This document shows positions 14,085 to 43,800 of a stretch of 64,000 nt of DNA, one piece after another. The stretch is from Marsupella aquatica. Its lineage: Eukaryota > Plantae > Marchantiophyta. The stretch covers positions 15,058,699 through 15,122,698 of the forward strand of contig OZ316894.1 of assembly GCA_973895155.1 (NCBI GenBank), in the 5' to 3' direction. The notes beneath the pieces are model-generated. The model ran no database searches, was not told where the DNA came from, and was given only the letters and a program-made list of their open reading frames with translations. Position numbers and translations under genes: made by a program. Every line of letters starts with the position of its first letter. Position 1 is the first letter of the stretch.

Positions 14085-14495
14085 TTTTAACAACATATTT
14101 TTACTTGACATCTAGCTTTTTAATGAAATCGTTTTACTTGACAACATCTTTCACATGACAACTTCTTTGGTGACACAACTTCTTTGTTTTAATGACATCT
14201 TTTTACTTGATGATATCGTTTACATAACGACTTCTTTGGCGACACAACTTCTTTTTTAATGACATCTTTTACATAACAACATCATTGGCAACACGACCCC
14301 GGACACGACCTCTATTTTCTTAATGACATCTTGGGCCAACATGACATCTTTTTTCTCAACGATATCTTGGTCAACACAACATCTTTTTTCTCAAGGACGT
14401 CTTGGCCAATAGGACATTTTTTTTTCAATAACATTTTGGTTAGCACAATATTTTTTTCTCAACAACGTCTTGGTAGACATAACATCTTTTATACA
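14085..14495. repeat. Degenerate short-unit array (GACATCTTT / GACACAACTTCTTT motifs)
   Basis: Many imperfect copies of atgacatcttt and gacacaacttcttt. Confidence 0.6.
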
Positions 14496-14599
14496 ACACG
14501 CGGGTATTGAGCTACTACCCTCTGAACAATTAGGGTCCCCTCCAAGGTGAAAAGTTTGAACGGAGATTCTCTCCAAATTTATTTGCTTGGTTCAATAAG

Positions 14600-15000: not shown

Positions 15001-15429
15001 CCAGCGCTGTGCTCGTCTACATTTTTTCCTGCGCTGCGGCTGTAACGGGGAAGGAGCTGGTTTTGTGCAAGCATTTGGCATTCATTGCTAGCGTGCGCAT
15101 TTGGTGTGGAGGGTTGGTGCTGGAGCTTCTTCGCGTCACAGTATTCTGCACTCGAGATCTCTCGTTACCTCTTAGAGCGCGCGCATAGCACGGCAAGGTA
15201 GGCAAGGAAGTCTGACTAAGACGGAGTGCCGGGCTCATCTATCGGAAGAGCTGTGACAGAATTTCGAGAGGAGTCGGGAGGGATTGGAGGGAGGAGAGTC
15301 GAGCGAAGGAAGTTTCGCGCACGACGAGTACGGGCTTCGCCGAGTATTCTTGGCTGTAAGAGCAGAGGTTAGGGTTGAGCTTTCGGTTCAGGAAAGGAGG
15401 TCGAGGGACAACAAGAGCAAGCCGCAAAA

Positions 15430-16221
15430 ATGGCGGGCGCAGCGACACCCGAGTCCAGGGAGGAGAGCGTGTACATGGCGAAGCTTGCAGAGCAAGCTGA
15501 GCGGTACGACGAAATGGTGGAGGCGATGGAGAAGGTCGCCAAGACCGTGGATGTCGAGGAGTTGACGGTCGAGGAACGGAATTTGTTGTCCGTGGCTTAC
15601 AAGAACGTCATCGGGGCACGACGTGCGTCCTGGAGGATCATCTCCTCGATTGAGCAGAAAGAGGAGAGTAAGGGTAATGAGGACCATGTGGCTGCGATCA
15701 AGGACTATAGGGCCAAGGTAGAGTCGGAACTGAGCACTATTTGCGAGAGCATCCTCAATCTCCTTGATACACACCTGATACCCACGTCAACCACTGGGGA
15801 GTCGAAGGTTTTCTATCTGAAGATGAAGGGTGATTACCACCGTTATCTTGCTGAGTTTAAGACCGGCACTGAGCGGAAAGAAGCCGCTGAGAGCACTCTT
15901 CTCGCTTACAAGTCAGCCCAAGATACCGCACTCACGGAGCTCGCTCCTACGCATCCTATCCGATTGGGTTTGGCTTTGAACTTCTCTGTGTTCTACTACG
16001 AAATCTTGAACTCTCCCGACAGGGCGTGTTCTTTGGCAAAGCAGGCCTTCGATGAAGCCATTGCAGAGCTCGACACTCTTGGTGAAGAGTCCTACAAAGA
16101 CAGCACCCTTATCATGCAACTGCTACGAGACAACCTTACTCTCTGGACGTCAGATATGCAAGAAGATGCTGGGGATGACGCCAAGGACGGTGCCAAGCAC
16201 GAGGATGCTGACGACAGTTGA
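15430..16221 (+). CDS. GRF: 14-3-3 protein (plant general regulatory factor, non-epsilon-like), single-exon CDS, 263 aa
   Basis: Canonical motifs [101 protein letters not shown]. Confidence 0.98.
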
Positions 16222-17140: not shown

Positions 17141-18276
17141 AATGAATACATGATATTCATTCTCTATACTAGAGCTATCACATCACATAGTTGACAAACC
17201 CTCTTTTTCCTGTCAATATCTTTCCATCTCCCTTGTTCTATTTTAAGGTGGTGTGAGCTTAGTCTATACTGAGCAATAAGTTGTCTAAGTTGTAGTGAGA
17301 TAGTGCTAGATAAGTATTCTTGTTCTCCATATTTCTTCATGGGGTTCACATCTCTCATGTAGTATACTACATGCCGTGGGCTAGGTTCATGCCAAAGTTT
17401 GTGCAAAGCCTTTTGCTCAAGTTTTGCTCTTAGCTTGGTTGGGTGTGTTGGCTATTCATGTTCAGGAAAATCCCAAGCATGGGCTCACCTGCACACATCT
17501 GCATACCACCCTTTAGCTGAAGATGAGCGCAAGGCATGAAAAGGAAATCTGTTTTCCTCCAACTCTCTTACACGCATGATGTATTTGAGTGTGTGGAAGA
17601 GTGCCTCCACCTCCAAAGGAAACAAGCCTGCCTCTGCAAGTGTAAGTGCATATGGGGTTTGTGACTTGATCCCAAGCTCCATCTCAAGAAATAGCTTTTG
17701 CAGCCCCTCAATCTGTTGCCACCCAGATTTAGACACACCTGCTCCCCAAATTGGTGCTCCATAAAGAATGACTGGTTTCACCAAAGCTCCAAAGAGATGT
17801 TTCCTTAACCTCCAAGTGTGTAAATCAGCTCTTTTGCATTTGTTCATGAATGCATAAAAAGCTCTGTACCCATTAGCAGCCCTAGATTTACACATGAGGC
17901 CCAACTCAAGTTTTGAGAGAACTCCACCCCAAGGTATTTGTAGGTCCTCACAAATTCCACCAGATTCCCTTGGAAGTAGAGCTCTGGATTTTGTCGTGTG
18001 CCAATGCCCAAACACTTGGTCTTCTTGAGGTTGACTACTATCCCTGTTGCTTGACAAAACTCCTCCAAGGCATTGAGATGCCTTTGCAAAGCTTCTTGAG
18101 CATGAGCAAGTAGGACCACATCATCTGCAAATATAAGAAGTTGGAGGACAAACCTACCCAATTGAGTGCCAACTCCACCATGCTCCTCCAAAATGTTGTG
18201 TAGCTGATCAATGAAGATGCCAAAGAGAGTTGGTGAGAGAGGACAACCTTGGATCACCCCAAGAGTGCTCCAGATT
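17141..18276 (-). mobile_element. Internal fragment of LINE ORF2 (RT C-terminal half to Zn finger), inverted near-identical copy of ~42795-43922
   Basis: IQGCPLSPTLFGIFIDQL...LLIFADDVVLL...RLSSHHLKIEQGRW is almost identical to the LINE at 39594-44234, with small indels. Confidence 0.93.
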
Positions 18277-21660: not shown

Positions 21661-22367
21661 CAACACTTGCCAGAACTCCAAAACCGCCGCACAATAGTCG
21701 AGTTCCGTAGAATGGAGCGAAACTCACAGAACGCAACTCAACAGATCTCAATAGACAACCGCCAACCTCAATGAGCCGAGGCTCAAGTCTTAAGTAGCAT
21801 CGGAAACCCAACCATCCAGCCTGAGCCAGCTACCATCTGCAAGGCTCATCCAAACTCCAAGCCTGGTGACTCACCCAAACACCAAACCTGGTGACGATGA
21901 GTCACCCAATCACCAAACCTCAATCCATCCAACCAAGCAGCCCCTCCAAGTTAGCATGCACGCAACCCAACCGGGAGGCCTCGCCCATCATCCCCTATAA
22001 AAGCCATTCCTGAGCCGAAATCTTTCGGCACGACATCCTCCCCCAGTAAACCTGAGCAGCCTTCGATCTGCTCCAATCCATCAGATTTCCTCTAAGTCTG
22101 AGTCCAAACTCAAGCCATGCGCCTGGACCACTTCCTCCTCAAGAAACTCAAACCCAAGGCCTTCAGACTCGGCATTAGGCACTCCACTTTCCAGAAACTC
22201 GAAGTCCAACTCATCCGAATCAGAACCAGTCAAGCCACTTTCGAAACTCAAGTCCAACGGATGTGCCTGGACCAGTGCCTCATCTTCAAATTCACTCAAG
22301 TTGGAACTTGAGTCCATTCCCTTCTTGGTCCTCTTGAAGATCTTCACCCTTTTCCCTGCGTAAGGTA

Positions 22368-22530
22368 CACTAGTAGAAACCGGGGCAATTTAGACCATAC
22401 CTTATAGGACTATGCCCACTAAGTCCTTTTTCCATACTTAAAACAACTCGCACCCATTGCACCGGTTTTGTTGAAGACTAGAAAAGACTATGAGAGTTTT
22501 ATGGTTCACTAAAAGACTATGAGAAGTAAC
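22368..22530 (+). repeat. CACTA left TIR and subterminal repeats
   Basis: cactagtagaaaccgggg followed by ggactatg / aaaagactatgaga repeats. Confidence 0.88.
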
Positions 22531-25500
22531 CTTGCTACTTTGTGAAGGGTGAATAGTCTAGCACATCATGGGTAATGTTCACTCTATGTTGAGGAGGGGT
22601 AATTCTCCTTCATCTTTGAGCCGAAAGCACCGACGTCTATCGAGTGCCAAAGAACTGCTGGAGATCGAGCGAATTCACACTCTCAGATGTGGGTCGTGTC
22701 AAATTGTTTCCTCCATTGATGGCAGCCTTCTGTGAGATTGATTTATACTGTGTGGCTATCTGGGAGTTTTGTCGACTCATTTGACACCGATACTCCCGTG
22801 ATTTCCTCATACATAGTGCCACTGCCCCCCCGCATTGTGTTCAATCCCTATAGCTTATAGCTGCACCACTCTTGGTGGCCCTTGCTCATGCCTTGGTTTT
22901 TTTTCTTTTTCCCATTACAGTATACACCCCCTTCTTACTAATCAGGTGGATTAATTTAGTACTAGACAATGCTTTGACACTTTACACTTACACTATGCTG
23001 ACCTACTGCGCCTTCTAGTGCTTATTCCCTAGTTGTTACTTGTTGCATGGACCACTAGAAGAACGGCTTCGCAATCTTTGCCTGATCTGATGACCCTGGT
23101 TGAGTAACTCTTTGTTATTGCCTCCTTTGGGTGTTGAGGTTTTATGATGCCATTTGGCCTACTGGTTCCCCCATCCGTGGGGTTCACGCGGAATAAATGT
23201 AAAATTTCAAACAAAAAAATAAATCTATAAAGAGGGTGATAGCAAGGGGCATAACTCATTAAATGTCCTTATTTGTGACCAAAAAGGTTTTGGGTTAATG
23301 AAGTGGGGTTCATGGAGGTTGGACCATGGAGGGATGGTCAAGATATTCTTGGCCATTACTAAATCCATCTATAAAAGGTCAAGATGCACAAAGGTAGATT
23401 TGTACCGGTCCTTTTTCATACATTAGAGCTAGGTCACATTCTTGCACCGGGAATATTGCATTTTAGGACCGGATATAATGTTGGGCAACCTTAATCCTGA
23501 TTACGGCGTGCAATAAAATGTCACTACCGACCATGTATGTGCAAATATGACCATTCATTGCCTAAGTTGGCCATGCAGTAACACTTTGTAGCTTTGTCCC
23601 ACTTTGGGTGACACTCAACGGCTCACTCAAACGGTAAGGCTGAGTGGCTTCCCCTAATTCGGTTTCAGGCACTAAACTTCACTTTGGGAGTCTCTTTGGA
23701 GTTTTCGCCATTGTCATTGAACTTAGAACGTGAGGGGTGGAGTGTTCGGGGTTTTACGTAGGGTTTTCCTTTCAGTGTTGCCCACTTTTTGCGACCATTG
23801 CGGAGTGAACTTCCCGCGCGTTATGTGCTTGTTTATGCTCTCGAGGAGCAGTGTTCAGGCAGTTGCAGTGATCTAACCTTGCGCTTGCAGTCTACTCATA
23901 GACCTGCATTCCTGCTCGATCTCCTTTAGGGACATTTAGTTTTTGGCTGGTAGGGCGAAGAAGGTTGTGGCTGCTGCAACGTTCGTGAGGAGCTTGTCGG
24001 AGTTTGAGGAGTCGGAGGTTGGGGTTTCTTCAAGGTTTTGGGTGACAATCTCGGTCACAGTTGTGGTATAGACCCTTTTGCTGCACCCATAACGAGCATC
24101 GGGAGGCCGTGAGGCTCATTGGGAGGTCCTTCAGTTGTCAAGCTGCCGTTGAGCTGGTGAAGTTGCATGCGGGTTGCATCTGTTCTGCGGACACAGTCAA
24201 TGTGGGAATCCATATTTTCATAGTGCTTGTTCTTGCAAACTGGGAGCCGAGAGTTTGGAGTCGGGAGCTAAGAAGGGTATTGTTAGGCTTCAATTACTCT
24301 GTGGTTTTCTCCAGCTCCATGGTACAGTTTCAATGTTAATGCTTTGTCCTTGTGCTGGTCTAGGTAGCGCGAGCTTCTACCTATTGCGCCCTCTTGCTGT
24401 AAGCGTATTGAGCTGCCAACTGAGTGATTCATACCTGTAGCTGCTTACGCGTGATCAAGAGATTGAACAAATGCCTAGTGCTGTCCAGCAGGAGAAAACT
24501 CTTTTTGGTCACGATCGGGCGTTGGAATATAACTAAGTGCGGCAGAGCAACACGGGGAGCTGTAGAGTTGCAGACAAGACGCAACTATAGAGGAGGCATT
24601 GGGAAGGACACAACGGTGCGGTGAAGGTACAAGGACCGTGGACCCTAACTTGTTTGCTGCCTTGGGAGGATCCGGAGAGCCCGAGGCGACATGCTTCATT
24701 GAGCCTGAGCTAGCTGAATCCAATCCAGGAGTTGTTGCGCTAAGGTGAGACTTTGAGTTTAGGGTTGCTTCAGTGTCCGAGTAGGTTTTCTCTTTGCGTC
24801 GGCAGCTAGAAGGTAAGCTCGGGGGCTTTACAAAGGGTTAGTGTTGTGGACTTTCCCTCCTGGACGTTGTGTGTCTTCATTTGCAACTTGTTTGTGGACC
24901 TGTGATCCTGAGACTGTCAAAATTGTTGTGGCCGCACTGACAACTTGATGACGCGTTTTGTGGATGCACCGTTAGTAATCGCGAGTACAGCTCTCCAACA
25001 ATTGCACTTACCATTTTTGACCACCTTGCATGATGTCCATCCGTGGGCTGGACCCCAAGAAGTAGATTTCGGTAGATTTCGGTAGATTTTGTCTTTGCCC
25101 CCGGTCCTCATTTTGTGCAATGTCCGCCTGGCACTTGGTTCTTGATCCCTACATTATCGTCTGCCGCTCGGCTGCTTGCAGAAGGGATCAAACAGATTGG
25201 AGGTGCTTGGTCTTTTCATTTTGAGTGTCAGAGTTTAGGAGGACAGCTTGCACCATCGCCGACAAGAATGACCTGCTTGCAGAACAAGAGGGACGAGCGT
25301 GAGCTGCTTGCAGAATAGGAGATTGACCGCGAGCACGAGCTGCTTGAAAAATAGGAGACTGAGGGCAACCTGCTTCTTTGTTGCTACTCTGGTTGCGCTG
25401 CTACATTGGTTGTTGATCTTCACCCACCCACTTGCCTACTCAATTGACAGAGTACAGCTTTGTCTCTGCGTCTGTTATTGCTGTCTTTGTCCCTCCCCTT

Positions 25501-26760
25501 GAAATTGTGGGCCTTAAAAGGTCAGTAAGTTGGCTTATGTAGTTTTTATGTCCCTCCGCTATGTCAATGCGTGTTTCATTGCATCAGGGCATCAGTCGCT
25601 GTTTGCCTATAACCGGACTGTTCATTCTCTGTCCACTCATTTGATGTAATTCTTCCCATTGCCGCCCAATGCTATGGCGCCCATGCTACAATTTGTGGTT
25701 TTTGTCTAAGCACAAATCCTCTCTGTGCCTGGTCTCTGTGTCCCGTCATTGGGATTGATTGTGTAGACGTTTCCTCTTCTCCCAGTCCTTGTCATCCACC
25801 AGCCAAAGCACATTGGATTGTTTTCAAAGGAGGGCTGTGTAGTTTGGAGGGTTTGATCTATGCAGCGGATTTGAGCAGATTGGCGGTTGTTAGTTTCTTC
25901 TTGTAAAACCTGTCTGTCTTTTCTGCTTTTGGCCATGCTCCTTCACTTCTTGCTGCAAGCTCAATGTGCTTCAGCTATGGCAATATTCACTTACCCTATC
26001 CCAACGGCACTACCGTGAGCTGTAGGACAGCCAACAGAAGCAGATTGTATCGATTGCATGTAAGTCAGGGTATTTTATGTATTGCGGAACAACTGTCCAA
26101 GTTTGCTGCAATGGCCGGTCTTGCGCAGCTGAATGAGCCAATTTCATTTTCCCTGTGCACTTCTATTTCTCAAAGAATTCCCTGGTCATGCTCATTTCCC
26201 CCAGAGTTAGAAAACAAAGAAGAAGAGCTGACTAATTGTAATTCCAATCCATATCCTGATCGGTCAAGGATTGTTCACTACATTGGCCTTGTCATTGGCC
26301 GAGGTCACCAAATTTTGCTTGGTTTCATTCCTGTGGAGCACTGCTGTGATGGATTTGTCGTAGCATTCTGCAAACTCTCACGGTTTGCTTATGGCCATTA
26401 TTTGCAATTTGCTGCTACTAATATGTCTTCTTCTGAGCAGCATACACCATAAGTAAGCAATAGTGGAGGTTTAACTGCACATCAACACATCTAGTGAACT
26501 ACCTCTCTGCTGCTCACTGGAGGGTGAGACTTTCACTCTTTCTGGATATTGTAGTTTGTAAGCAAGTTGATTAGGAGTGTTTCATGCTATGTTTACACTG
26601 TGACCCCTAGCTGGAACCAATGGAATGACACAGTGAGTGGGAACTGATAATTTAAGGTTGGTTGCTGTTGGTGAGGCAAGTACAGCTCCTGCTCACCTTG
26701 CTGATCGAAGGTGCTTATCAGAGGACGTGAACACACGACATCTCCACAAAAGCAACACTT

Positions 26761-27210
26761 ATGGTGAGGACCCGCAACGCTGAACATGTGCGGCTTGCAC
26801 GCAAGGCAGAGATGTTGCGCCTTGAGTATGTCAGACTTGGGATCCTTCCAGCCCAGTCTGCATGGTACTTTGAGTACCCAGTTGTTGCCAGGAACAACTA
26901 CAGCCGGCCTGTACCTGCTTCTCCACCCTTCCCAACATCCTTGGTATTTCTGTCTCTCATACATGACCCGCCACAAATTAGGGCCCAAGGGTGTGTGCAC
27001 AGTTGCCAATATGATTGTCCTGCCTGTAGGGCTTCTGGCCTAGAGTTGGATGACCGTTCTCTTGGATGTCGGTTTTTTCATAGAGCACAATGTATCATCT
27101 GGAACCACTCGCCATCCTGCAGTGTGCCTGGCGATGTCACTTGTCCTGCCCTCCCAGACCCCACCACCGGTCACTTTGGTGTCTACACATGTTTGGATCA
27201 CACGCTCTAG
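26761..27210 (+). CDS. Small Cys/His-rich ORF of unknown function inside the CACTA, 149 aa
   Basis: ATG-started ORF co-oriented with the other cargo, containing CVHSCQYDCPAC...CRFFHRAQC...C...C...CLDH. No family recognised. Confidence 0.4.
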   Translation: MVRTRNAEHVRLARKAEMLRLEYVRLGILPAQSAWYFEYPVVARNNYSRPVPASPPFPTSLVFLSLIHDPPQIRAQGCVHSCQYDCPACRASGLELDDRSLGCRFFHRAQCIIWNHSPSCSVPGDVTCPALPDPTTGHFGVYTCLDHTL

Positions 27211-27879
27211 AGGACCACTTGTCACACCGCATGCACAAACCAGAGACCATTGACCTATAACTTAACACTTTGACTTGAACAGAGAGGATATTTACTTAAG
27301 ATTTTGAATTATGACCAATTTTGGGTCCAGGGTTTAGGGTCAACAGTACATAACTTATCCTATTATGGCTACACTAAGTACAATATCCTAATTTAAGAGG
27401 CTAGCAAGCTCACTTAAAAGTCTCCTTTCAAAGACTGGAATTAATGGGCCATGTGATAACCTGGAAAAAGTGATTTCTGCCTAACTTATTTGTCTCATTC
27501 ACTATCATAGCCTATTTAGGATGTATAAATTACAACCCTGATCACAGTGCTTGATACCAATCCTGTTCAAAAAATGCCTGTTTTACATGTCACGACTGTT
27601 ATATGTGATTCAAATGCATTAAATCTTGTTGCAGATCTCCTTTGGTGAATCATAGCCACAAAATTGAGGTGTAGGTGGAGCTATTGTACGAGGGGATCAG
27701 TTTTTAGTGTGGGCTCAACAAACCAAAAAGTATGTCTACTCTGCACATGTGTGTGAACATTTCATTGCAGTAGCAATTGCCACTCTAGTCTATATGCTAC
27801 ACTGTACTTTTTGTACACTGCACTAAATTGTATTGTCCGTGCACTCTGCTAAATTGTACTATCTGTCTCATGCGTAGGC

Positions 27880-28548
27880 ATGGCACGCCCTAAAATCCGA
27901 GCCAAGAAGCGGGGGACAGAGGTGAGCAACACAGGTGTAGTTGGGCCAGATGGTAGTAACTTCTCCGCAAGTCAGATTTTCCAGAAGGCAGCTCATTGTT
28001 GTGCCATTTGTGACGATGGTGGTGGCTTAGCCATATGTGAGGGCCCTTGCATGAGGCATTTCCACCTCAACCCGGAGTCTGACCTTGCTGCAGAAAACAA
28101 CTGTCCAGGGGTGGGCCTCCCGTCAGCACACCAGGGAGGCTGGATGTGCACTGATTGTTTGGAGAAGCAGGCTAAGTGTGCACAGTGTGGGAAGTTGGGG
28201 TCTTATGAGGGCTCTGTTGATGCTCCACCACTTGTTAGGAAATGCCCTGACAGATATTGTGTGAGGTTCTTTTGTTTTTCATGTTTGCCCGATCTTGCCA
28301 CAGCTTGCCCACTTCATAAGTGCAAGGCATGTGGTCAGCACGATGAAGATTTCTGGGTGGACATAGTCCACTGTGTTAGGTGTCCCTTTCATTGTTTGAA
28401 GGAGCGTCAAGCAGAAGGCTATGCTTGTGACAGACACATCTATGATCACTCTGCACATGGTGTTGATCGATGGATCTTCTATTGTCATCGCCATGCCATA
28501 GATCCTACTTTGCACACTCCCATGAGAGATCACATTTCTTGGCTTTGA
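27880..28548 (+). CDS. Stand-alone EDM2-like composite PHD-finger protein with N-terminal NLS-like segment, 222 aa (CACTA cargo)
   Basis: CAICDDGGGLAICEGPCMRHFH...CTDC...CAQCGKLGS...CPLHKCKAC...CVRCP...IFYCHRHAIDPTLHTPMRDHISW parallels the Arabidopsis EDM2 PHD region as recalled (CAICDNGG..CCEG.CLRSFH...CPLHKC..C...CRRCP...IYC..HEID..L.TP.RDH). N-terminus is RPKIRAKKR. Confidence 0.85.
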   Translation: MARPKIRAKKRGTEVSNTGVVGPDGSNFSASQIFQKAAHCCAICDDGGGLAICEGPCMRHFHLNPESDLAAENNCPGVGLPSAHQGGWMCTDCLEKQAKCAQCGKLGSYEGSVDAPPLVRKCPDRYCVRFFCFSCLPDLATACPLHKCKACGQHDEDFWVDIVHCVRCPFHCLKERQAEGYACDRHIYDHSAHGVDRWIFYCHRHAIDPTLHTPMRDHISWL

Positions 28549-29146
28549 ACCTGAATAATATACATGCATAGTGCACCTGATGTGGATACCTTGGAGATTG
28601 TAGACATTCCAATTTTGAGAAGAAGGACCTCTGTAGGAGAGGATGCTTAGGCAACAAGTACCCTAAGTTCATTACTTGTTCCTGGGTACATGCCTTCAAA
28701 AACTGCCCTTAAGCCTTCTAGGAACTTTTTTAACTCTGCAATCATTTTGATCACGACTTACATGACACTGCTTAAATTAAATCAGGACTTCTCATTATGA
28801 GCATATAAGTTACAAGGCTATTTAATTTGCGAGAATTCCCTTAAAGTGTACCAACATTTTGTATTCTCATTGAATGTCTGCCCATTTACAACATCTGTAT
28901 GTGGCATCACAAAACAATTGCACTTGTCACCTTCAATATTGTGAAGGCACATATTCAAACTATGAGGTGCATGCTTGCAGGTGTCTAGTATGTTTGTCCC
29001 AATATTTCTCCCGTTTGGAATCGGAGCAGAGACTCACCAAACGACTGGACTGGACCAAGTTATAAACGCAGCATTTTAAGGGCCCTCTGATTATCAGGTG
29101 AACGCATTATCTTCCGGTCTGCAGTGATTAGGTGGCCCGTGTGTAC

Positions 29147-29995
29147 ATGGCCTCTAGAAAACGTACAAAGGTTGACCACCCGCCTCTGTTGGCTGGAATC
29201 AAAGCCATTTTGATTCCTGGCCACTATGGGTTCACCCAAGTGAGTTGGCCAATCGTACAAAAACGATTCTCAGAGTTCCATGGGACTGAAGTCAAGGACA
29301 TCACTCCACAGACTACACATGTTGTTGCGGGGACATGGCTGGATGTGATGAACAAGTGGTCATGGTCCTTCATTGATTCTGCCATTACCAACCAAGGTCT
29401 AAAAGTAGTTGAAGTCTCTTGGCTGACCGATTCTGTTAAACATAGGTGTGTACAGAGTACTGAGCAATATGAGTTGTGGGAGAGTGAGGAGGCCACTGCA
29501 GAGGCTTTGGCTGAAAAGGAAGCCTATGAAGCAGCGGCAGAGAAACCCAACTTTGCTTCTGTCCAATATGGACCTGTTGTCAACATAGGACACCATCCTA
29601 TGCGTGCAGATGCTATATTGAATGAGCATGGCAAGGAGAGAAATACCATTATGAAGGGGTTCAATGTGGTATTTGCAGAAGAAGGAATTGGGGAGACTAA
29701 GTGCAGACTGTACAAGTCTATAGTTGTTGAGCTAGGTGGGACAGTGGAGGAGAGTCTAACAGAAACCTCCACTCATGTTGTAGGTCTGTCATACATAAAA
29801 ATATGCAGAAAATTCTTTAAGACAACAGTGCGTGATTTTGTCATGAACAACAATCTTTGGGTGCTTTCCCCTGATTGGCTTCTGGAATTAGCAGCTAGAG
29901 GGAAGCGACAGAATGCTTGGGACTTTGATATTTTTGAGGCCTGGCCCTCCAAGATTCAGCGAAGATGTATGCTTAGCAAAGGTGGGAGAGAGTGA
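29147..29995 (+). CDS. Tandem BRCT-domain protein (CACTA cargo)
   Basis: Two BRCT units: LLAGIKAILI...FHGTEVKDITPQTTHVVA...VVEVSWLTDSV...YEL and IMKGFNVVFA...ELGGTVEESLTETSTHVVG...VLSPDWLLE. N-terminal RKRTK. Confidence 0.82.
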   Translation: MASRKRTKVDHPPLLAGIKAILIPGHYGFTQVSWPIVQKRFSEFHGTEVKDITPQTTHVVAGTWLDVMNKWSWSFIDSAITNQGLKVVEVSWLTDSVKHRCVQSTEQYELWESEEATAEALAEKEAYEAAAEKPNFASVQYGPVVNIGHHPMRADAILNEHGKERNTIMKGFNVVFAEEGIGETKCRLYKSIVVELGGTVEESLTETSTHVVGLSYIKICRKFFKTTVRDFVMNNNLWVLSPDWLLELAARGKRQNAWDFDIFEAWPSKIQRRCMLSKGGRE

Positions 29996-30171
29996 GGAGT
30001 AGGAGTCCCTCATATTTTTGTATAAAACACAATTTTGTAATAAATGTGATCCTTGAACTAACTCATCTTGTCATGGTTGGTCGCAGTTGAAGTGATTGTT
30101 GTTTCCTGCTGCGTGGGGTGTGACTGTGAATCTACTTGCTGGGCTCTGTTTGGCTGAAGACTTTGGTGGGT

Positions 30172-30705
30172 ATGCTGCCTCTTCCAGACCGTCAGGCCCT
30201 ATGTAGGGTCCTCCTACGGGTTGCATCGTGCATGGCTACTGCTTGGGCTTACTTGTGTGGATTGGTAACCAGACAGAGTGTAGCTCCATCCGAGATAATG
30301 CCTGCAGACCTTGGATGTGTTGTGAATGCTGTGGTGAATGAGGATGCACAGTCGGAAGAGGACATTTACTTTTCAGCAGATGAGTTAGACAAGCACGATG
30401 CTGTAGGTGGTTCCTTGTTGCCTGATTTGGCAGATGATATAGTTCTTACACATGTCTGGCCGAGGGTTCTTGTGGTGTCTGGCGCACAAGATATCTGCAA
30501 ATATAGACTAATTAGTACCCAGTGGAGGGACTTGGTAGCAACATGTGCACCATGGAGGGCACTGCTGCCATTGCTTGTAGGCACGGATCGAAGACCACCA
30601 TGGCATGAGCAGGGTTTAGACCTTGATGACTTAATGTACATGCCTGAGTACCTCAGGGCTGAGTGGCATCGACAACAGGATTGGTATCCGTATTTGATGT
30701 GGTAG
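30172..30705 (+). CDS. F-box-like small protein lacking an obvious substrate-binding domain (CACTA cargo)
   Basis: SLLPDLADDIVLTHVWPRV...CKYRLISTQWRDLV matches the F-box pattern LPxLPDDIxxxIxxRL...RxVSxxWRxLV. Confidence 0.62.
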   Translation: MLPLPDRQALCRVLLRVASCMATAWAYLCGLVTRQSVAPSEIMPADLGCVVNAVVNEDAQSEEDIYFSADELDKHDAVGGSLLPDLADDIVLTHVWPRVLVVSGAQDICKYRLISTQWRDLVATCAPWRALLPLLVGTDRRPPWHEQGLDLDDLMYMPEYLRAEWHRQQDWYPYLMW

Positions 30706-31031
30706 TAAGATGAGGACATCTCACACCGGTCTCGCACCTGGCACCTGTGTCTATGACTATACATGATTGGACTCTGATATGGTCATGGATGTACGTGCAG
30801 AGGCAGTACATGTGAGGACAGCGGAGGAGTTGACACCCTCAAACATTTAGGAATTTTGTCTCATTCACTTGAGAATAGGTACATGACTCAGGCACCTATA
30901 TTTTTTGTTTTTTTGTTTTTTTGGAACGTTACGTATTTTGGCAAGTACAGTCGGGGGTGAAATCCTTAACAGGAAGTGTATTTTTCACTTGCATAATAAA
31001 ATGACAGGGTGCTGAGTGCGTGTGTATAGTG

Positions 31032-34000
31032 ATGGCTCCAAGGTTGCCTCTTCACAACCCATTTAGGATTAGGCATCATGATTCTAAATTGTGGATGCGT
31101 GAACAAGCCCGGGCCGCCCAAGGTAGGAGTAGGAGGATGAGATGCCCATGCACACAGTGCCAAGGATTCAAGTCGTTGAGTTTGAACACTGTGCACCTTC
31201 ACCTGCTGCGGCATGAAAGGCACCCTCGGTGGAGGGTTTGGAATGTACCAGCAGAAGAAGACTCCTCTGATGAAGAGTGGAGAGCTGACTTTGTGGATTC
31301 TAATACAGCTAGGCGTAGAGACTACGTAGAGCAGGACATAGACTGTGCAGAGGATGGTCCTGGGGTCCAACATGAGAACGTGGATGACCAAGATGGAGAT
31401 GCAGAGGCAATCACTGAGGACGGTGGGATGGATGTCCCAAGAATGGTTCAAGAGATTTTTGAAGACCTTGATGCTTTTTACGACACAGTGGAATCAGAAG
31501 AGGACAATGAACCGCAGCCACACATTGGCGACGGCCAAGCTCAACCTGACTTTGACATTGGGGAAGGTGCAGCAGAGAGGGAGTGGGTGTTTGGGGGCCC
31601 AAAACACATCAAAGAAGCTTGCATTCCTATCTACGAGGGGTCGAACTACTCCAAGCTGGGTTTTGTCGTGTTGTTGTTGAACATCTGTGGCAATCACAAT
31701 GTTCCCAATATATTTGTGACAGAGTTGTTGACCTTCCTGCGCCGAAATGTGTTACCAGATGGTAATTCAATTCCAAAAAATATGTACGAGGCTAGGAAAT
31801 TGATGTCTAACCTTGGGCTGAACTATGTGTCTATTGACGCATGCCCTGATGGGTGTGTTCTCTTTCGCAAAGAGCATGCAGATAAATTGACATGCCCTCA
31901 TTGTGGTAAGCACAGGTACAAGAATGTAGGGAAATGTACACACCCTGCCAAGGTTCTTCGTCATTTTCCTCTCATTCCTAGACTACAACGTCTGTTTAGA
32001 TGCCCTGCCATTTCCAAGCTGATGACATGGACTCCTGATAACAAGAGCAGTGATGGCCTGCAGCGTCACATTGGAGATTCCAACCATTGGAAATTTGTTG
32101 ATGAGAGGTGGCCACAGTTTGCTGCAGAGAAGCGGAACTTTCGATTTGGTCTATCACTGGATGGAGTAAACCCATTTGGAGACAAAAACAACCGTTATTC
32201 ATGTTGGCCGGTTACGCTGCTAAATTACAACCTTCCCCCATGGATGACTACAAAGAGGTTTTTTGTCATGATGGTGCTGTTAATCCCTGGACCAGCTTCT
32301 GTGACCGAGCAATTCATAGATATCATGTTGGCTCCAGCAGTGGAAGAGTGGAAGACTTTGTGGATAGAAGGGGTGTTAACCCATGATGTTCTGAAGGGGC
32401 TTCTTCGACCTAGCCCCTTTAGACTGCATGCAATTTGTTTGCTGGATATAGCAGATTACCCAGGCCATGGCATCATATCTGGACGAGTGACAAAGGGCTA
32501 TGTGGGGTGCACACCATGTGGGAAAAATGTGACAAGTGAGTGGTCGCATGCCCTGCACAGTATGAAATTTCAGGGGCATAGAAGGTATCTGCCTGTTGAT
32601 CATCCTTACAGGCACACACGGTCTCAAATTGCACACTTCAACAACAAAACAGAGCTTCGTGGCCCACCACAGAGGGTCACCAGAGAGCAAGTCCTGAGGT
32701 GGGCAGCCAGGAAGGCTGATTGGGACAAGAGAAGTGCCACTGATCGAGAACCTGAGGATCCAGTGGTGAAACACGGTGTGAAAAGACAGACCTTGATGGA
32801 CTTGGAGTTGGAGTACTGGAGGGTAATGTACTTAGCCTCCAGCCCCTGTATGATTGCAATTTTAGATTGGAGCAATGGTGGATTGATGTTGGTTACAATC
32901 CTCCTATGTGGTTAATTAGTGTTTCTGTTGTTGAATTCTTTGCTTTGTGGAGTGCAGGAATTCGAGCCCAGCAAACACAATGTGGACGTCATGCACATTG
33001 AGAAAAATATTTGTGAGAGCTTGCTGAAGTTCTTGTCGGGTGAGAAAGATACAGGAGCAGTTCGAGCTGATATGCAACACAAGGGGATTCGCCCTCACCT
33101 TTGGTTGAAGCCCCATGCAAGCAATCCCAATGTACTTCTCAAGTTCCAAGCTCCCTATGTGTGCACACAGGATGAATGGAAGACATTCTTGTATAGATTG
33201 AGCTGTCTGAAAGTGCCCTCTGGCTATGTTGGTGCCTTCAAGAAGCATATTACAAAGAATAAACTTGGCAGTATGAAAACACATGACTACCATGTGTTGA
33301 TGCAACACATTCTGCCCCTATGCCTCAGAGGTCTCATGCAGAAACCAGTCCGTAATGTCATTCTTCGACTGTGCAATGTATTTTGCCGTATATGTGTGAA
33401 AGTGTGGGATCCCCAAGGATTGGAGCAGTTGAAGCAGGATGCTGCTTATGTCCTCTGTGACTTGGAGATATACTTCCCCCCTGCTTTCTTTGATGTTATG
33501 ACTCATCTCCTAATCCATGTGGTAGAAGAGCTAGGGCAGTATGGGCCAGTCAGTACCAGATGGATGTACCCTATGGAGCGATACATGAAGTTGTTGAAAG
33601 GTCATGTGAGAACATACTACAGGCCAGAGGCTTCCATGGCATTGGGGTACATTACGGATGAGACGTTGGGATTCCTAACAGAGTACATGGCTGGGTCTGG
33701 TGAAGCTATGACAAGAGTTTGGAAATCTGGTGAAGATGATGGAGTGAGTGGCGAGGTTGTTGAAGGTGTGGGACGTGCTGTTCAACTGCCTGTTGCGATT
33801 CGAGACAAGGCTCATTCATATGTGCTGGCAAACACAGAGCCTATGCAACCATGGTGGAGGTGAGTGATTGAATTGACTTGCCTTTGTTGTGATGCTTCTT
33901 GTCTGTTCCAAGGGTGATCTTAGGTTGTCATGTGTTGTTTAGACCTAACTATGCCTGTACCTCATAATGCAGGGAATATGATATGCAAAAAGCTGCACAC

Positions 34001-34732
34001 TCTGGGCAGCAGGATCCCTTCCCACAGTTCGAGCAGTGGATTCGGGTGACAATTCGAGAGCATAGTAGACATCACCCAGATATGGAGAATGATTTGTATC
34101 TTCTATCTGTGCCACCACGATTGTCTATTCTGACCTACAAACGGATGAGAGCTTATGGAAATCATTATCGAGTGAGGGATGAGCAGGGTGACCATTGTGT
34201 ATCATATGATTGTGGTTTGATTTCTGTGTTTGAGCAGAGAACCTCTGAAGAACAGAGGGGGTGGATGAAGATGGGTTACGTGGGGGAGTTGACCGACATT
34301 TGGGTGTTGAATTATGGTAACACAAGTGTCCCAGTGATATTGATGAAGGGATCATGGGTGAAATCAGAGTGGCAGAGACCAAGGGCCACCATGAAGCGTG
34401 ATCATGATGGGTTCTTGTTGGCCAATTTTAGGTCCAGAGTACCAGAATGGTCTGAGCCTTTTGTTTTCCCTAGCCAAGTTGAACAGGCTTTCTTTGCAGA
34501 TGTGGAGGAGTCACATGACTGGAGGGTGGTATGCCATAGCCAAGCACGGAACAGGCGGATGGATGGAAGTAAAGTAGAGTTCAGTTTGGATGACCATGCT
34601 GCATTCGAGCATCCTAGTCATGAGACTGTACTTCCAACTCGGGCAGGGACTGACTACATCCCCTTAACATTGAGAGAGACATATGATGAACCTGGGCAAA
34701 TGGAATATGATGAGGTTGATGATTTGCAATAG
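31032..34732 (+). CDS. CACTA transposase TnpD (transposase-associated, Transposase_21, DUF4218, DUF4216); exons 31032-32822, 32958-33859, 33973-34732
   Basis: Motifs RCPCTQC, IDACPDGCVLF...CPHCGKHRY, GLSLDGVNPF...YSCWPV..LNYNLPPW, DVMHIEKN, MKTHDYH, WMYPMERYM, EPFVFPSQVEQAFF. GT-AG introns at 32823-32957 and 33860-33972 join the three ORFs in frame. Confidence 0.93.
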
Positions 34733-34909
34733 GCAACAGCTGGCGATTGGCAAGTATGAGGTTGAGGATGACTACCTGCACAGAGTCACATAACGGGAAT
34801 TGCTGCCTGGAATGATGTTTAGGATAGTTGGATATGCATGAAATTGATTGATACTTTGAATTTAGTGTGCTGATTCTCCCTGTTTGGTTGTGGGTGTTGT
34901 GCAGAAGCT

Positions 34910-37900
34910 ATGGGGGAAGAGGGTGATGACATGGAGACAGACATGGGGCTTGGAGAGTGGGGTGAAGAGGAAAGATTGGATATGGATGGAGACCCAGATG
35001 CAGGGGGCTCACAGAAAAATGCACCTGTGCAAGATGCACAGGGCCCTCATCAAGTCCCAGGTAGGTGGGCAGCTAGAGAGAAATCACATAATCCATACCC
35101 TAGAAGGAGCCAGAGTTATTGGCAAGGGACGCCTGATAATTATGATGATGACTATGATGGAGCAGAAGATGGATGGGATGAATATGAACACCCAGAGCGT
35201 GGTAGAGACGGGTACAGAGGGCAATGGAAAGGTGAGGAGGATGATTGGACAAGTAAGTGCCTTGTGCTAGTGATTTTGTGATGATAGTAGAGATTTAGCT
35301 CAATATGCACTTATCTGATGTGTAGCTAGGGCAAAGAGTTTATCTTACAGGTCCATGAGTGTGGCATGTACCTGTTGGTATGCAGACTCTGATTGGGACA
35401 ATCACGAAAACAACAAAGGCCATCCACGTTCAGATAGGAGGCAATCATTCACAGGCGGGAGAAACGCCCCTAATTCATCAAGACAAAGCAATAGGACAGG
35501 TGGTCCAGAACCATCTATGCGCCAAGGGAGAGGTAACTTGGTCATTGCAGAATTGCTCTGAAGTCCACTGTATATTTGGCAGCGGGATTTATGATTCATA
35601 CTTACCTAATGTAAGTGACTGTAAATGGATCCTGTAAATGTGCAGGGACTCCAGGGAGGTTTGGACAATGCAATCCAGGCCGTGGGGGGAGATCAGGCCG
35701 TGGAGGGACCCCAGGCCGTGGGGGGACACCAGGCCGTGGAGGGACACCTAGTAGCGCTTCAGGGAGTACCAAGGCAGGAGACAGTAACAAATTTGGTAAA
35801 GTAGAAGTGAATTCCGAAGGTTGGATAACTCCCACATGTGATGGTAAGAACCGTTGGCATTCTGACCTAAGAGGAGAAGTATTGCGTTGGTTAGATTTGA
35901 GCATTACAGAGTTTAGGAGTCAGAACAAAGCTGATTGGGCTGCTATCTGCAAGGACATTCTTGAATGGTGGGAGTATGTTGGTAATGATGGTAAGGGCCC
36001 AGTTGAAGATTGCATATCAGATTATGCAATGAGGATTTTGAAACAAGAGAGGCATAGGTTGAAAAGGATGTGGATAGACAATGGTTCTAACAGGAGAATG
36101 CCACCACCCCCATCATTGGAACTGGATCAATGGACACGGTTAATCAAAGGGTTCATGTCGGAGGCTGGACAGAGCAAGAGTGAACTGATGTCAAATGCTC
36201 GAGGCAAAGTGAAACACCTTTCACAGGCTGGGAGAGGAAGTTATGCTCCAGTGAAAGAACAATTGGTAAGGCAGTGACATGCCTGATAGTAAGCCTCAAA
36301 CTTATCATCTTGCTACCATTATTACATTTTCATTGACAATCAACACTTGGTTTCATTCATATGTATGTTGATGTGGACTGCAGAAGAAATTGACAGGTGA
36401 AGAACCATCAGCACAAGAAGTGAGAGAGGAGTTCATGAAACAAAGGAGTGAGGTGACAAGTGTAACTTCCAAACAGGTGATTATGTTGTAATTCTGTATG
36501 TTCTGTGACTATTTGGCCTTGAGCATCAGAAAGAAATGTAGTAGGAAGTAAGCAACCAGTTCTTGGGGACAGTTATCTGAGATATGTAAGCTATGTTATG
36601 ACAGGGAACTGTTACAACTCTCACAAAGATGTGTGAACGGTTGAAGTCATTAGAGTGTGGACTCCCTCGAGTGGAAAGTAAATTGGCTGATCGTTTGGAT
36701 ATTGTGGAGGCATATGTAGCGAACCTTCTTGCATCAGTGGAATCTAATTTCAAGCTTGTGATTGAAAAATTGGGTGGTTCCCAACCAAACAATGAGGGCA
36801 ACATTGTACAAAGTGTGCCCTTGTTAACAAAAAAGGGAATTGGCAAATCTAACACAGGTATGGAAATGACACCGGCCCATTGTTCATTGTGTCCTATGTT
36901 CAAATGTTAGAAGTAAGTTTTCATGAATTGAGTGAATGGTTTGAATGCAGGAAGAGTGGAGGCAGAGAAGGACCCTGTAATCAGTAAGCAGAAGGGCAAG
37001 AAGGTTGCTGAGACAGGTAACCTGCTATGATCCAATACATTACATTTGAAAAGTGCATGGAGTTTTGTGAAGCTTAAGCCGGTTGGAGGTAATCTTTTCT
37101 GTAAGAACTGGTTGGATGAACTGGGATCTGAAGTGACATCATGATTGATGTATCAGGTGATTCAAAGAGCAATAATGAAGAAGATGTGCCCAGTGCCTCA
37201 GTGACCATAGCCAAGGAGGTATCAGGTAAGCTGATGCTTTAAATTCCTCTATATGAATGTTGAGCAACAATTCAGTGGTTAATAGATTCAACCTGAATAT
37301 TGTGGTGTGTTTATTGATCAACAGAAGCAGACATGGAGCATATGGCAATGGCAAAGAAGGGGAAGAAGGCTGTTCATAATGGTAAGGAGATAGTGACAAC
37401 TTTGTGGTTGGTGACATGTACATTTAGCACATGTGATGAGTGATTGACTTATGTTGGACATGACACTGAATTGTAGTTGATGCAGAGTTGACAGACTCTC
37501 AACCAAGTGGGAGTAGGGTGAAGCGACGTCGAAACTTGGGAGCAACATTGGATGCAAGTAAGATTGTAGATGCTTCAATTGAAGCAAGTACAATGTTGGC
37601 AGATACTGAGATGATGTCGCAGGGAAATCCTGCTACACAATCAGAAGTGTCAAATATGGATGCAGATTCTTTGAAGAAGAGTGTAGCCAATTCTCGATCA
37701 CCAGCACAAAACACTCGTGCCAAAGTCATGACTCGCAACCAAGGTATGAATAATGTCATGTATAAGCCACCCAGGAAAGCCAAGAAAAACAGCCAGGGTA
37801 AGGTGGAGGTGATAGCCACAGCAGAGCCAGTCCATAATCTTCTATCATGGGAGGATGACTCGCAGGTATGTGTGGGTACAGGCATTTTGCGACCGGATCA

Positions 37901-38081
37901 TGCAAAATTCCATGGCAAAGTGGTCCCGGATGACCATGTAGTAGTGTTGTTGACTACAGTGATTGTATCTGATTATAATTTGCCATTTCCGAATAGAGAC
38001 GATGATCCACCTCAGGAAATAATTGCAGATGCAGTAGGATCTCTTGTGCTCTGGCCATCAGAGTGTGTTAGTCTGCAGTGA
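34910..38081 (+). CDS. CACTA TnpA-like DNA-binding protein, multi-exon (exon boundaries approximate)
   Basis: PPSLELDQWTRLIKGFMSEAGQSKSELMSNARGKVKHLSQAGRGSY (Transposase_24-like). Last exon FHGKVVPDDHVVVLL...LPFP...IADAVGSLVLWP (Tnp1/En-Spm C-terminal-like). Several GT-AG introns. Confidence 0.8.
35675..35750 (+). repeat. 18-bp coding tandem repeat (PGRGGT)
   Basis: ccaggccgtgg(g/a)gggac, about 4 copies. Confidence 0.8.
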
Positions 38082-38574
38082 CTGAATGCAAGTGTAGATA
38101 GCATCATGTGAATTGTGTCACATTTTGACATTGCCTTGGAAAGATCCAAGAAATATCTGTACCAATTTTTCCATTTGGTAAAGAGGATGAAGGAGACGTT
38201 GTGTGTGACATTGATATTTCTGAATTCTGTATGTATGAAACAAGTGATTGATGTCAAACTATGGCTCTATGGTGATTGTCTATGATACTTGAATCTATTT
38301 TATCATTTCAGTATTAGTGTGTATGGTATAGAGGAATACTTTGTGACCTTCTTTGTAGTCTATGAAGTTTGAATCTGTGAATTCATATTAGTGTACATGG
38401 TATAGAAGATGGCTTTCTGAAACTATGTATTCTAATGTTAACATGATGAATGGTGAACTTATAGAGTGAGTTCATTCCAAGTACACAATAAAACATGAAT
38501 GCAATATGTTATTTGTGCACAAGAGTGGGTTCATTCCAAGTAGTATAGTGGGGTCTTCATCACTCATATCCAGT

Positions 38575-38907
38575 TGACATAAAAGACTTATACATACCCC
38601 ACAAAGTATATTTAAAGACTACCCTCCATAACCTTTTTAGTCGTTCCCAACGACTCATCATCGCAGCCCATAAAAGACTAAAAACGACTCACCAAAGCTA
38701 CCCACACAAAGACTAAAATAGACTGAAAATCCAGTCTATTAAACGACTTATAAACCAGTTCTATAAAGGACTCAGTTGATTATAGTAACAAAACATACGA
38801 CTCGCAGTCCTATAAAGGACTAGAGTCCTTCCCAGTCGTTTCCAAGTCCTATACGGTACTGAATAGTCGTTTAATGGGGTCTAAATACCCCCCGGTTTCT
38901 ACTAGTG
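38575..38907 (-). repeat. CACTA right subterminal repeats and TIR
   Basis: Many aaagact/aaaggact/acgact motifs in both orientations, ending in ccccggtttctactagtg. Confidence 0.88.
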
Positions 38908-39608
38908 TCAAGACGCCGGTACAAAGGCAAGCATTGTAATTCGAGGAAGTGAGTCTCCACAACTGAATATGAAGTTGTGTGGTATGGTTTTTGTTCTCAT
39001 GATGAAATTTGAATGTCTTGGGTGTGTAGCTTCATTTTGTTATTTGGGTTAGTGGTTCATAGTCTAGTCTTTAGAATGTTAGGGAATAAAAAGCTATGTT
39101 GTGGGTGGTCGGTGACCATATCTCTTTCAATATGTCACCAAATCTGGATCTGTAAAGAGCATTGGAAAGATCTGGTCACGTCGAGTAAAATCAATATAAA
39201 ACTCTATGAAAACAAAGGTGATTAAGAAAGATTCAACCTGATTAGTGTGATGGGTTAACTTGTGGCCAAAATTAACGGGTTCTGCTACGGTTTTGGGTTA
39301 ACTTAAGCTTGGCCACGGCTTAGTTTTGGGCCACGACTTAGTTTGGGCCACGACTTAGTTTTGGGCCATGGCTTAGCTTAGGTGAGCTTGGCCATGGCTT
39401 AGCTTAGGTCAGGACTACTTTAGTTTAGGCTTAACCCAAGTTTGGGTTAGACTGAACTCGGGTTAGCCTAAAATGGGGCCGGGGTTAGCATAGGTCATCT
39501 CGGGTTTGGGCTTAGCTTAGCCTAGGTTAGCGGGTAGCGGATTAGCGGGTAGCGGTTTAACCCAAGGCCATGGGTTAGCTCTACTCAGGTTAGCTATGTA
39601 ACTGCAAC

Positions 39609-40892: not shown

Positions 40893-43800
40893 TGGATCGG
40901 GACCTTGAGAGTCATGGCATGGAATGTTTCAGGACTTTCCATAGAAACAACAATTGGACGGGAACCTTTGTTTGAGAATTTTGACATCTTGCTTTTCACG
41001 GAGACTTGGGAATATGAGGGAAATGCTCTACCTAGCATTAAAGGCTTTACTTGCATACAATCCATCTTCAATGAGAAGAAGACCACACGGGGAAGAGGGT
41101 TTGGAGGCATTGTTGTCTACACCAAGAATCAACTTCAACACATCACCTCTATTGAACATGAAGATCCCAGCAAGCAGTTCATGGTGGTGAGACTTCATAC
41201 CAGAGGTACTCCATCATTTCTGATTGTCACCTACTTTGCTCCCCTTAATATGAATGTCTATAAGATGGGAATTGCTGATGCACATTATCCATTTCATAGG
41301 TTAATCCAAGTCATTCATGATATATCACCACTAGGGGAGACATGGATAGTGGGGGACTTTAATGCCAGGGTATCTAATGAACAATTTACTGAAAGTGAGG
41401 ACTTAGGAACTTTACCTTGGTCATCATGTAGTGAAGAGATACCTTGGGTGAGAGAGGCTCTTGACACCAGAACAAAGGACATGACACGTCACTTTTTGCA
41501 TTTGGGAGCTTCTTGTAATCTAAGAATATTGAATGGGCTTGAGAGATTTCCCCAATCATCTGGTTACACTTTTAGATCTAAACAAGGATGTAGTACCATT
41601 GACTACCTTCTTGCCTCACCTACCTCTGCCACTAGAGTGGTTGACTTTCAAATACTTGATCAACAACCAGAGTCTTCATACTTGCCTTTGTTGTTCCATC
41701 TTGACCTGACCACAATCCCAAACAAAGTGCATAGAAAGCCAGTACCCAAACCTCTGTTTCTAGACCCTGATAGAGAAATCATCTTCAAAGCCAACTTTGA
41801 ACATCTTCTCCATACCCTGGATGATCAGATTGAGCTCTCAGAAGTCATAGCACAAGCAGCAGCCTCTACTTTCTCCACCAAACCCCCTAGAAAGCAAAAC
41901 ATGAAGGCTTGGTTTGACGAGGATTGTGCTAGAGCAAGGATGCAAGCAAGATCACATTCAGGGGAAAAGAGACTTTTGGCATTCACTATGTACAAGAACT
42001 TCATCAAACACAAGAAGAGGTGCTTCTTGAAGAGTCATCAACAATCACTATGTGAGGAGTTCATCAAACATCCAAAACGTTTTTGGGAGAGAATGCAATC
42101 AGGCAAGACTACTCCCCCCTTGGATCACCAGGACCTGGTAACCTATGTCACATCCTTGTATTTCTTTCCAGATGCTAGTGGCATGCCTTTGCCCCTTGGG
42201 GACACCATTCAGTTTACAGAGAGGGAGGTGAAGGTGCATCTTTCCCACATGCAACATGGGAAAGCTAAATCTGTTGGGCCTGAACTTGGAGCTTCTTTTG
42301 TGGGGAGGACCCTCTTTACTAACAAACTTGGTGCATGAGCTGAATCAAGCAATGGCTTTAGGTTTACCTAAAGCTTGGATGACCAGAAGAGTGGTGCCTA
42401 TCTTCAAGGCAGGCAACAAGGACGATGTGCACAACTACAGAACCATCATGGTAGGCAATACTTTTGCTAAAGTTTTGGGAGGACTACTTGAAGCCAGATT
42501 AAGCTCTTGGTTGGAGAGTGAGATGAAAAGGGCACCTTCACAAGCAGGTTTTAGGAGAGAATTCAGCACTATAGATCACATTCTCTGCTTGAGGGTGTTG
42601 TGTGAAAAGGCCAAATCTCCACATAAACCATTATTTTGCTTGTTTGTGGACTTCTCCAAGGCCTTTGACAAAGTTTCCCGATCCAAGCTTTGGGATAGGA
42701 TGGTGGAGTTGGAAGTGCCTGAAGAGCTCAGGTTGGCTGTTTCTAAATTGTACCAAGAAGTGCGCATCAAACTTTCAAAGGAAACCTTTGAAGAAATCTG
42801 GAGCACTCTTGGGGTGATCCAAGGTTGTCCTCTCTCACCAACTCTCTTTGGCATCTTCATTGATCAGCTACACAACATTTTGGAGGAGCATGGTGGAGTT
42901 GGCACTCAATTGGGTAGGTTTGTCCTCCAACTTCTTATATTTGCAGATGATGTGGTCCTACTTGCTCATGCTCAAGAAGCTTTGCAAAGGCATCTCAATG
43001 CCTTGGAGGAGTTTTGTCAAGCAACAGGGATGGTAGTCAACCTCAAGAAGACCAAGTGTTTGGGCATTGGCACACGACAAAATCCAGAGCTCTACTTCCA
43101 AGGGAATCTGGTGGAATTTGTGAGGACCTACAAATACCTTGGGGTGGAGTTCTCTCAAAACTTGAGTTGGGCCTCATGTGTAAAATCTAGGGCTGCCAAT
43201 GGGTACAGAGCTTTTTATGCATTCATGAACAAATGCAAAAGAGCTGGTCTACACACTTGGAGTTAAGGAAACATCTCTTTGGAGCTTTGGTGAAACCAGT
43301 CATTCTTTATGGAGCACCAATTTGGGGAGCAGGTGTGTCTAAATCTGGGTGGCAACAGATTGAGGGGCTGCAAAAGCTATTTCTTGAGATGGAGCTTGGG
43401 ATCAAGTCACAAACCCCATATGCACTTACACTTGCAGAGGCAGGCTTGTTTCCTTTGGAGGTGGAGGCACTCTTCCACACACTCAAATACATCATGCGTG
43501 TAAGAGAGTTGGAGGAAAACAGATTTCCTTTTCATGCCTTGCGCTCATCTTCAGCTAAAGGGTGGTATGCAGATGTGTGCAGGTGGGCCCATGCTTGGGA
43601 TTTTCCTGAACATGAATGGCCAACACACCCAACCAAGCTAAGAGCAAAACTTGAGCAAAAGGCTTTGCACAAACTTTGGCATGAACCTAGCCCACGGCAG
43701 CAATACTACATGAGAGATGTGAACCCCATGAAGAAATATGGAGAACAAGAATACTTATCTAGCACTATCTTAGTACAACTTAGACAACTTATTGCTCAGT

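Follow-up and report, generated by a model that had tools for sequence, protein, structure and literature searches.

The 64,000-nucleotide stretch analysed here, called the window throughout, comes from the liverwort Marsupella aquatica (GenBank assembly GCA_973895155.1, contig OZ316894.1, positions 15,058,699 to 15,122,698 of the forward strand). It contains a 16.5-kb transposable element (TE) at 22368-38907, which is of CACTA type by its terminal inverted repeats (TIRs), starting with CACTA, and by its TnpD transposase. Between the left TIR and the transposase lie four open, co-oriented reading frames (ORF1 to ORF4), all present on the + strand where a preliminary description of the locus had placed them. 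The second of them, ORF2, is by its sequence the complete 2.5-finger PHD module of EDM2 (ENHANCED DOWNY MILDEW 2), an anti-silencing protein of the host plant that reads H3K9me2; ORF2 is derived from EDM2 and is not itself an EDM2, and its N-terminus resembles the tail of histone H3. The element is organised as follows.

22368-22385, + strand: left TIR of CACTA type, a perfect 18-bp match to the right end; the left flank ends in GTA
22386-25963, no strand: left arm, long, mostly non-coding and variable among copies (frame scan and depth)
25964-26452, + strand: ORF0, doubtful, 162 residues; codon score -4.4, weak, yet the best of six frames
26761-27210, + strand: ORF1, rich in Cys, His and Pro, 149 residues; two homologues
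27880-28548, + strand: ORF2, EDM2-type PHD module with H3-like N-terminus, 222 residues, intronless (profile search, tree, alignment)
29147-29995, + strand: ORF3, basic start resembling a nuclear localisation signal and two BRCT domains, 282 residues; Pfam BRCT twice, E 2e-13
30172-30705, + strand: ORF4, weak F-box-like segment at about residues 83-130, 177 residues; Pfam F-box E 0.1
31032-34732, + strand: TnpD transposase, predicted exons 31032-32822, 32958-33859 and 33973-34732; Transposase_21 E 1e-59, DUF4218, DUF4216, Transpos_assoc
34910-38081, + strand: TnpA-like spliced gene (model); Transposase_24 E 0.002, below cut-off
38890-38907, - strand: right TIR, perfect 18-bp pair of the left end; the right flank starts with TCA

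The element and the coding signal of its cassette

The 18-bp TIR CACTAGTAGAAACCGGGG occurs exactly twice in the window, once on each strand, with 0.01 occurrences expected. CACTA/En-Spm elements generate a 3-bp target site duplication and carry subterminal repeats. At this locus the flanks read GTA (22365-22367) and TCA (38908-38910) and thus form no target site duplication. For that reason the copy is not counted among clean CACTA insertions; recombination between two copies or insertions may have produced it. No empty site was found within the window, where neither flank matches anything else, and the only candidate subterminal repeats are one 17-nt family with three copies near both ends. 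Splicing out two GT-AG introns gives TnpD an open frame of 1150 residues in the model. An open GT-AG path of 770 residues exists through the TnpA-like region, in a model selected for openness; an 18-bp repeat lies in four copies inside this gene, at 35675-35746. The left arm holds a single stop-to-stop frame of 120 residues on the - strand (24475-24837) and none on the + strand before 25907; in other copies its summed depth is lower and deletion joints are present.

At least four ORFs of at least 149 residues appeared in none of 300 simulated sequences with the same base transitions (mean 0.05), and a codon model trained on TnpD gave every cassette ORF its top score in its own frame. The preliminary description had contrasted these open frames with neighbouring TE ORFs, most of which carry stops. 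The frames are indeed open, but the contrast does not hold inside the element, where openness shows little because TnpD is open too. Poly(A)-like signals lie downstream of ORF2, ORF3 and ORF4, and each cassette ATG is preceded by a splice-acceptor-like YAG site, a weak clue, such sites being common. ORF0 has no Pfam match under E 0.1, and its stop is private to this copy: position 26450 is G in all four of the sequencing runs (X1, X2, X3 and X5) that cover the element. In these runs the stop codon reads GAA and is followed by a donor-like GTAAGC; ORF0 could therefore belong, as an exon, to a further cargo gene or to a leader.

ORF2 and the PHD module of EDM2

ORF2 had been described as a compact single-module PHD protein, which needs correction, as it carries 2.5-3 PHD fingers. 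Pfam returned only PHD-1st_NSD at E 3e-4, below its cut-off. Four full-length homologues share 80, 74, 52 and 39% identity with ORF2, and in the alignment 25 of 37 Cys and His residues are invariant, compared with 38 of the 185 other residues. Searched with a profile, 1.84 billion representatives yielded 441 matches, with short stand-alone proteins on top and long proteins beneath. Six of the 10 matches that were looked up are angiosperm proteins, and three of these belong to clusters that bear the name EDM2, among them the Arabidopsis EDM2 cluster itself (E 7e-24 among 1.8 billion). The intact relative P0002 aligns with residues 225-432 of Arabidopsis EDM2 at 30% identity (E 8e-27), including a C-terminal TPxRDH motif. 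Identity between P0002 and the 31 host-type PHD rows in the alignment is 28-37%. The RFD, the acidic tracts and the ELP domain of EDM2 are absent from ORF2.

As a donor of the module, NSD was considered and ranked below EDM2. NSD2 reached E 5e-9 among 177,635 PDB sequences; EDM2 is preferred because of its E of 7e-24 in the far larger set and because of the shared C-terminal motif.

Nine stand-alone PHD proteins formed one clade among the EDM2-family rows of a 36-row tree (support 100/100, stem 1.09, end branches up to 0.9), the tree rows being hand-chosen from the 138 that passed a coverage filter, and a 56-row quick tree agrees. The single clade and its long stem thus indicate that the capture of the EDM2 module is old. 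Its sister group is not settled, an unstarred 82/86 fork adding short liverwort paralogues and four unnamed rows. Compared with host EDM2, the stand-alone form lacks a 19-residue segment of finger 2, has a His replaced by Cys, and has lost the acidic stretch ahead of finger 1, which is replaced. Seven ORF2 relatives are truncated or apparently frameshifted, as is expected of transposon copies. In the copy studied here, an in-frame 12-bp deletion after 28385 removes T-M-W-H from finger 3. Copies with the 12 bases account for a depth of 1,978 of 3,711 in X1, 16,700 of 19,380 in X2 and 14 of 157 in X5; for X3 none are listed.

The ORF2 protein starts M-A-R-P-K-I-R-A-K-K. Histone H3 has ARTK at positions 1-4 and ARKS at positions 7-10 (PMC6028506). 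In a post hoc test on 16 hand-picked, related short rows, eight of them outside the trees, the best window had K4 in 14/16, R2 in 12/16, and A7 and K9 in 11/16 each. The motif stands directly after Met in eight of the 16, and removal of Met would expose a free Ala, as in H3. Over 14 N-termini the H3 order A-R-T-K-x-x-A-R-K-S ranks third of 5040 permutations, and over all 16 only 4 of 5040 permutations of the same letters reach it; with anchoring at Met the counts are 26 and 37 of 5040. The 17 residues that follow the motif are poorly conserved. Only 2 of 99 long host proteins score at least 17 in the 45 residues before finger 1, and the first 22 residues of ORF2 had no match as a query against PDB. 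On these comparisons, the ORF2 N-termini follow H3 residues 1-10 beyond what composition gives, and we predict mimicry of the histone tail. M-A-R starts occur in P0015, P0016, P0017, P0020, P0023, P0036 and P0046 as well as in P0026, P0048 and P0073, these rows being liverwort and Mesotaenium members of the EDM2 family together with some unnamed short paralogues.

The companion ORFs and other copies of the element

ORF3 carries the tandem BRCT domains named in the preliminary description. Its single homologue is 61% identical over 95% of the length, and the two domains resemble one another (E 9e-6), which suggests that the pair arose by internal duplication. The best PDB matches were LIG4 (E 0.006), BRCA1 (E 0.05) and TdT (E 0.37), and an Atlas search with the second domain returned generic BRCT clusters only. 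The AlphaFold model was too poor for fold search or pocket inspection (predicted local distance difference test, pLDDT, 34). A presumed origin from plant polymerase lambda, an assumption of our own, found no support.

The F-box segment reported for ORF4 does appear in the Pfam search, but at 13 bits it falls short of the cut-off of 20.5; ORF4 has no PDB match and no recognised substrate-binding domain. Among its copies, 20 of 39 variants are synonymous as opposed to 25-27% expected (p 0.0004-0.001, crude omega about 0.3), the variants being the best-supported 40 of 47 rows, with one upstream of the ORF. The other two + frames over the same stretch give 13/39 and 7/39, and within the F-box and C-terminal part 14 of 26 variants are synonymous. 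One variant creates a stop, at depth 3 in run X6. For ORF1, two homologues with 56 and 54% identity over 97% of the length share the MVRTR start motif and the end, and 10 of 16 Cys and His residues are invariant. It had no match in Pfam, PDB or Atlas, and its AlphaFold model (pLDDT 42) was too poor for fold search. ORF1 is likely zinc-binding, as judged from its sequence, and defines a new small protein family.

Part of the cassette is present in 10 listed runs from eight studies, and at least half of its words occur in four of these; no RNA run is listed, which has no bearing on expression. In X1, X2, X3 and X5, which represent three studies and three organism codes, all 30 element bins are covered by 742 to 14,506 contigs, and the summed depth of the cassette is about that of the transposase. 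In X1, the depth of single contigs over the part between cassette spacer and TnpA, TnpA included, is 1,290-2,073, against 449 for a contig of the left arm. The similar contig depths fit a cassette that travels with the transposase in an abundant family, depth not being equal to copy number. None of the contigs listed spans the entire cassette, and cassette and transposase are shown to be linked in the present copy. Runs X6 to X10 hold small shares of the cassette words only; nothing in X9 aligned on ORF4, which may be an effect of the filter. Depth peaks over ORF1 and was left unused for ranking the genes. All the homologues come from Logan contigs of 0.9-5.7 kb, and scans of viral and metagenome contigs yielded no relative.

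Taken at the sequence level, the cassette ORFs are not recent scraps of genes, as ORF1, ORF2 and ORF3 have diverged full-length homologues with intact frames and ORF4 shows a synonymous excess, and they are very probably maintained accessory genes. Maintenance rather than random capture had been proposed at the outset and is borne out: the ORFs are found in other copies, the homologues and the synonymous excess in ORF4 indicate constraint in place of neutral evolution, and identity to the closest host genes that have a name is about 30%, well short of near-identical fragments, although a closer donor may lie in the liverwort's own genome.

The CACTA, copia and 14-3-3 sequences in the window are of plant type, and the tree points, weakly, to a non-seed plant. 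An intact, intronless 14-3-3 ORF, possibly a retrocopy, lies among transposons at 15379-16221 on the + strand (Pfam E 2e-106). At 49969-53306 on the - strand, an ORF resembling NIF-type phosphatases (E 5e-14) adjoins one resembling N6/N4-methyltransferases (E 1e-4), and the pair could be cargo of another mobile element. Two pieces of one long interspersed nuclear element family, 98% identical, lie on opposite strands at 17141-18276 and 42795-43922, and 55886-58692 is occupied by arrays of short, degenerate tandem repeats, in which both strands have long frames free of stops.

A putative chromatin decoy, its rivals and known systems

EDM2 has 2.5 atypical PHD fingers; its PHDs bind H3K9me2, and it promotes full-length transcripts and read-through across intronic heterochromatin (PMC7529245, PMC7472560). 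We favour, at a probability of roughly 0.55, a CACTA family with four conserved extra genes in which the EDM2 module and H3-like tail of ORF2 act as a chromatin decoy against silencing; the histone-mark reader guessed at in the preliminary description is thereby sharpened, by sequence, to a particular module and tail. Like EDM2, ORF2 would attach to H3 tails on methylated chromatin, but it lacks the other domains of EDM2 and would therefore compete with host readers. Its tail, with equivalents of K4 and K9, could present H3 writers or readers with a pseudo-substrate, or else fold back into the finger of ORF2 itself. Where the transposase makes breaks, ORF3 would bind phosphorylated repair proteins; ORF4 would bind SKP1 as a decoy or an adaptor, and ORF1 is likely a zinc-binding partner. 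The cassette genes are likely expressed via alternative splicing or as small separate units. A bolder form, which we regard as possible but doubtful, sees a CACTA lineage with virus-style histone mimicry, whose captured EDM2 module, H3(1-10) mimic, repair adaptor, SCF decoy and zinc protein make up a counter-defence operon that titrates H3K9 writers and readers at its own copies. The cassette may be a toolkit for host manipulation, as the preliminary description proposed, but its F-box call is weak and ORF4 has a frameshift deletion that is common in one run.

Several observations weigh against the decoy. The motif test was made after the fact on chosen rows, and the near relatives P0003 and P0004 lack most of the H3-like motif. 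Full-length EDM2-family proteins of liverworts and Mesotaenium also start M-A-R, without K4; A1 and R2 may have been inherited and K4 and K9 added, and in those proteins the M-A-R start may act as an internal ligand of the PHD finger. With its shortened finger 2 and replaced acidic stretch, the stand-alone form may differ from EDM2 in histone specificity, and finger 3 of the present copy has lost a His that is a predicted zinc ligand. The ORF4 variant sites are not independent of one another. Some copies of ORF4 have a 43-bp frameshift deletion, seen in X5 on the sole contig listed over that stretch and in X3 on a minority. The distant homologues, read from short contigs, may sit outside CACTA elements. 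When EDM2 is lost, some TEs go up and others down (Mu1 up, COPIA4 transcripts down; PMC3632883), and the direction of any effect of ORF2 is therefore not predictable.

The same findings can be read in other ways. The genes could serve targeting or repair instead of anti-silencing, the basic tail of ORF2 being only a nuclear localisation signal. Tandem BRCT domains fit repair, the tail is basic, and P0003 and P0004 manage without the full motif, but from a generic basic signal one would expect neither the conservation of Ala at H3 positions 1 and 7 nor a rank of third among 5040 orders; we judge this reading fairly unlikely. Alternatively, ORF2 could recruit, as a positive mimic of EDM2 that brings read-through factors to the element's own multi-gene, H3K9me2-marked transcript and thereby lets splicing and distal polyadenylation extend to TnpD and TnpA. 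Full-length transcription through heterochromatin is the known role of EDM2, and the 16.5-kb array of at least six genes has poly(A)-like signals after ORF2, ORF3 and ORF4. Such a role is nevertheless unlikely for a protein that lacks all non-PHD parts of EDM2 and the 19-residue segment of finger 2.

Finally, the cassette could be old captured host DNA that hitch-hikes on a family successful in itself, its apparent constraint reflecting host-gene ancestry or the ascertainment of open frames. Protein databases contain open frames only, several ORF2 relatives are truncated or apparently frameshifted, and deletion derivatives of ORF4 have been amplified. Against these stand divergence to 39-61% with ligands, starts and stops conserved, a long stem apart from all named host genes, and the synonymous excess among copies of the element itself, which together make mere hitch-hiking very unlikely.

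Accessory and anti-silencing genes on transposons are already known, and going by the literature searched this cassette is an undescribed form of them. That search, to which subscription journals, Repbase reports and supplements were external, returned no transposon-borne EDM2 module, no BRCT protein on a CACTA element and no transposon histone mimic with a PHD finger. Compared with EDM2, which acts in the Arabidopsis AAE complex, ORF2 shares the whole 2.5-finger PHD module at 30% identity; EDM2 has 1297 residues with RFD, acidic and ELP parts, whereas ORF2 is a transposon-borne protein of 222 residues with a short finger 2 and a basic, H3-like N-terminus. A PHD-only protein of this size makes it testable how EDM2 fingers read combined H3K4 and H3K9 marks, and also whether the A-R N-terminus, seen in liverwort EDM2-family proteins too, is a built-in self-ligand.

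VANC of VANDAL (MuDR) elements and TnpA of En/Spm are anti-silencing factors, apparently captured from host chromatin regulators (PMC13547354; bioRxiv 10.64898/2026.08.24.746577). Like the cassette ORFs they are accessory proteins on plant DNA transposons. They bind DNA motifs, whereas ORF2 is a predicted histone reader on an element with four separate cargo genes; no cassette ORF had a VANC-type MAIN/PMD-like Pfam match, and no homology was found. If the decoy reading is true, the captured EDM2 reader and its H3-like tail would amount to a counter-defence at the level of histones, while VANC and TnpA act via DNA motifs. Fungal EnSpm and other DNA transposons encode TET/JBP (PMC12730594), likewise an epigenetic cargo gene, but a DNA-methylation enzyme in fungi and not a plant reader or mimic. 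Pack-CACTA elements (PMC13317346) also hold host-derived sequence inside CACTA ends; they are non-autonomous and without transposase, whereas the present element has an intact TnpD and an old, constrained cargo of whole domains. With four such genes on an intact, apparently abundant family, it can be tested directly whether transposon success is driven by accessory genes. Known histone mimics, influenza NS1 with ARSK and G9a with ARKT (PMC6028506), bear a short H3-like motif on a non-histone protein, as ORF2 does. Unlike NS1 and G9a, the predicted mimic of ORF2 combines the K4 and K9 positions, is N-terminal, is fused to an H3 reader and resides on a plant transposon; if true, histone mimicry by a plant transposon would be an undescribed case within the literature searched.

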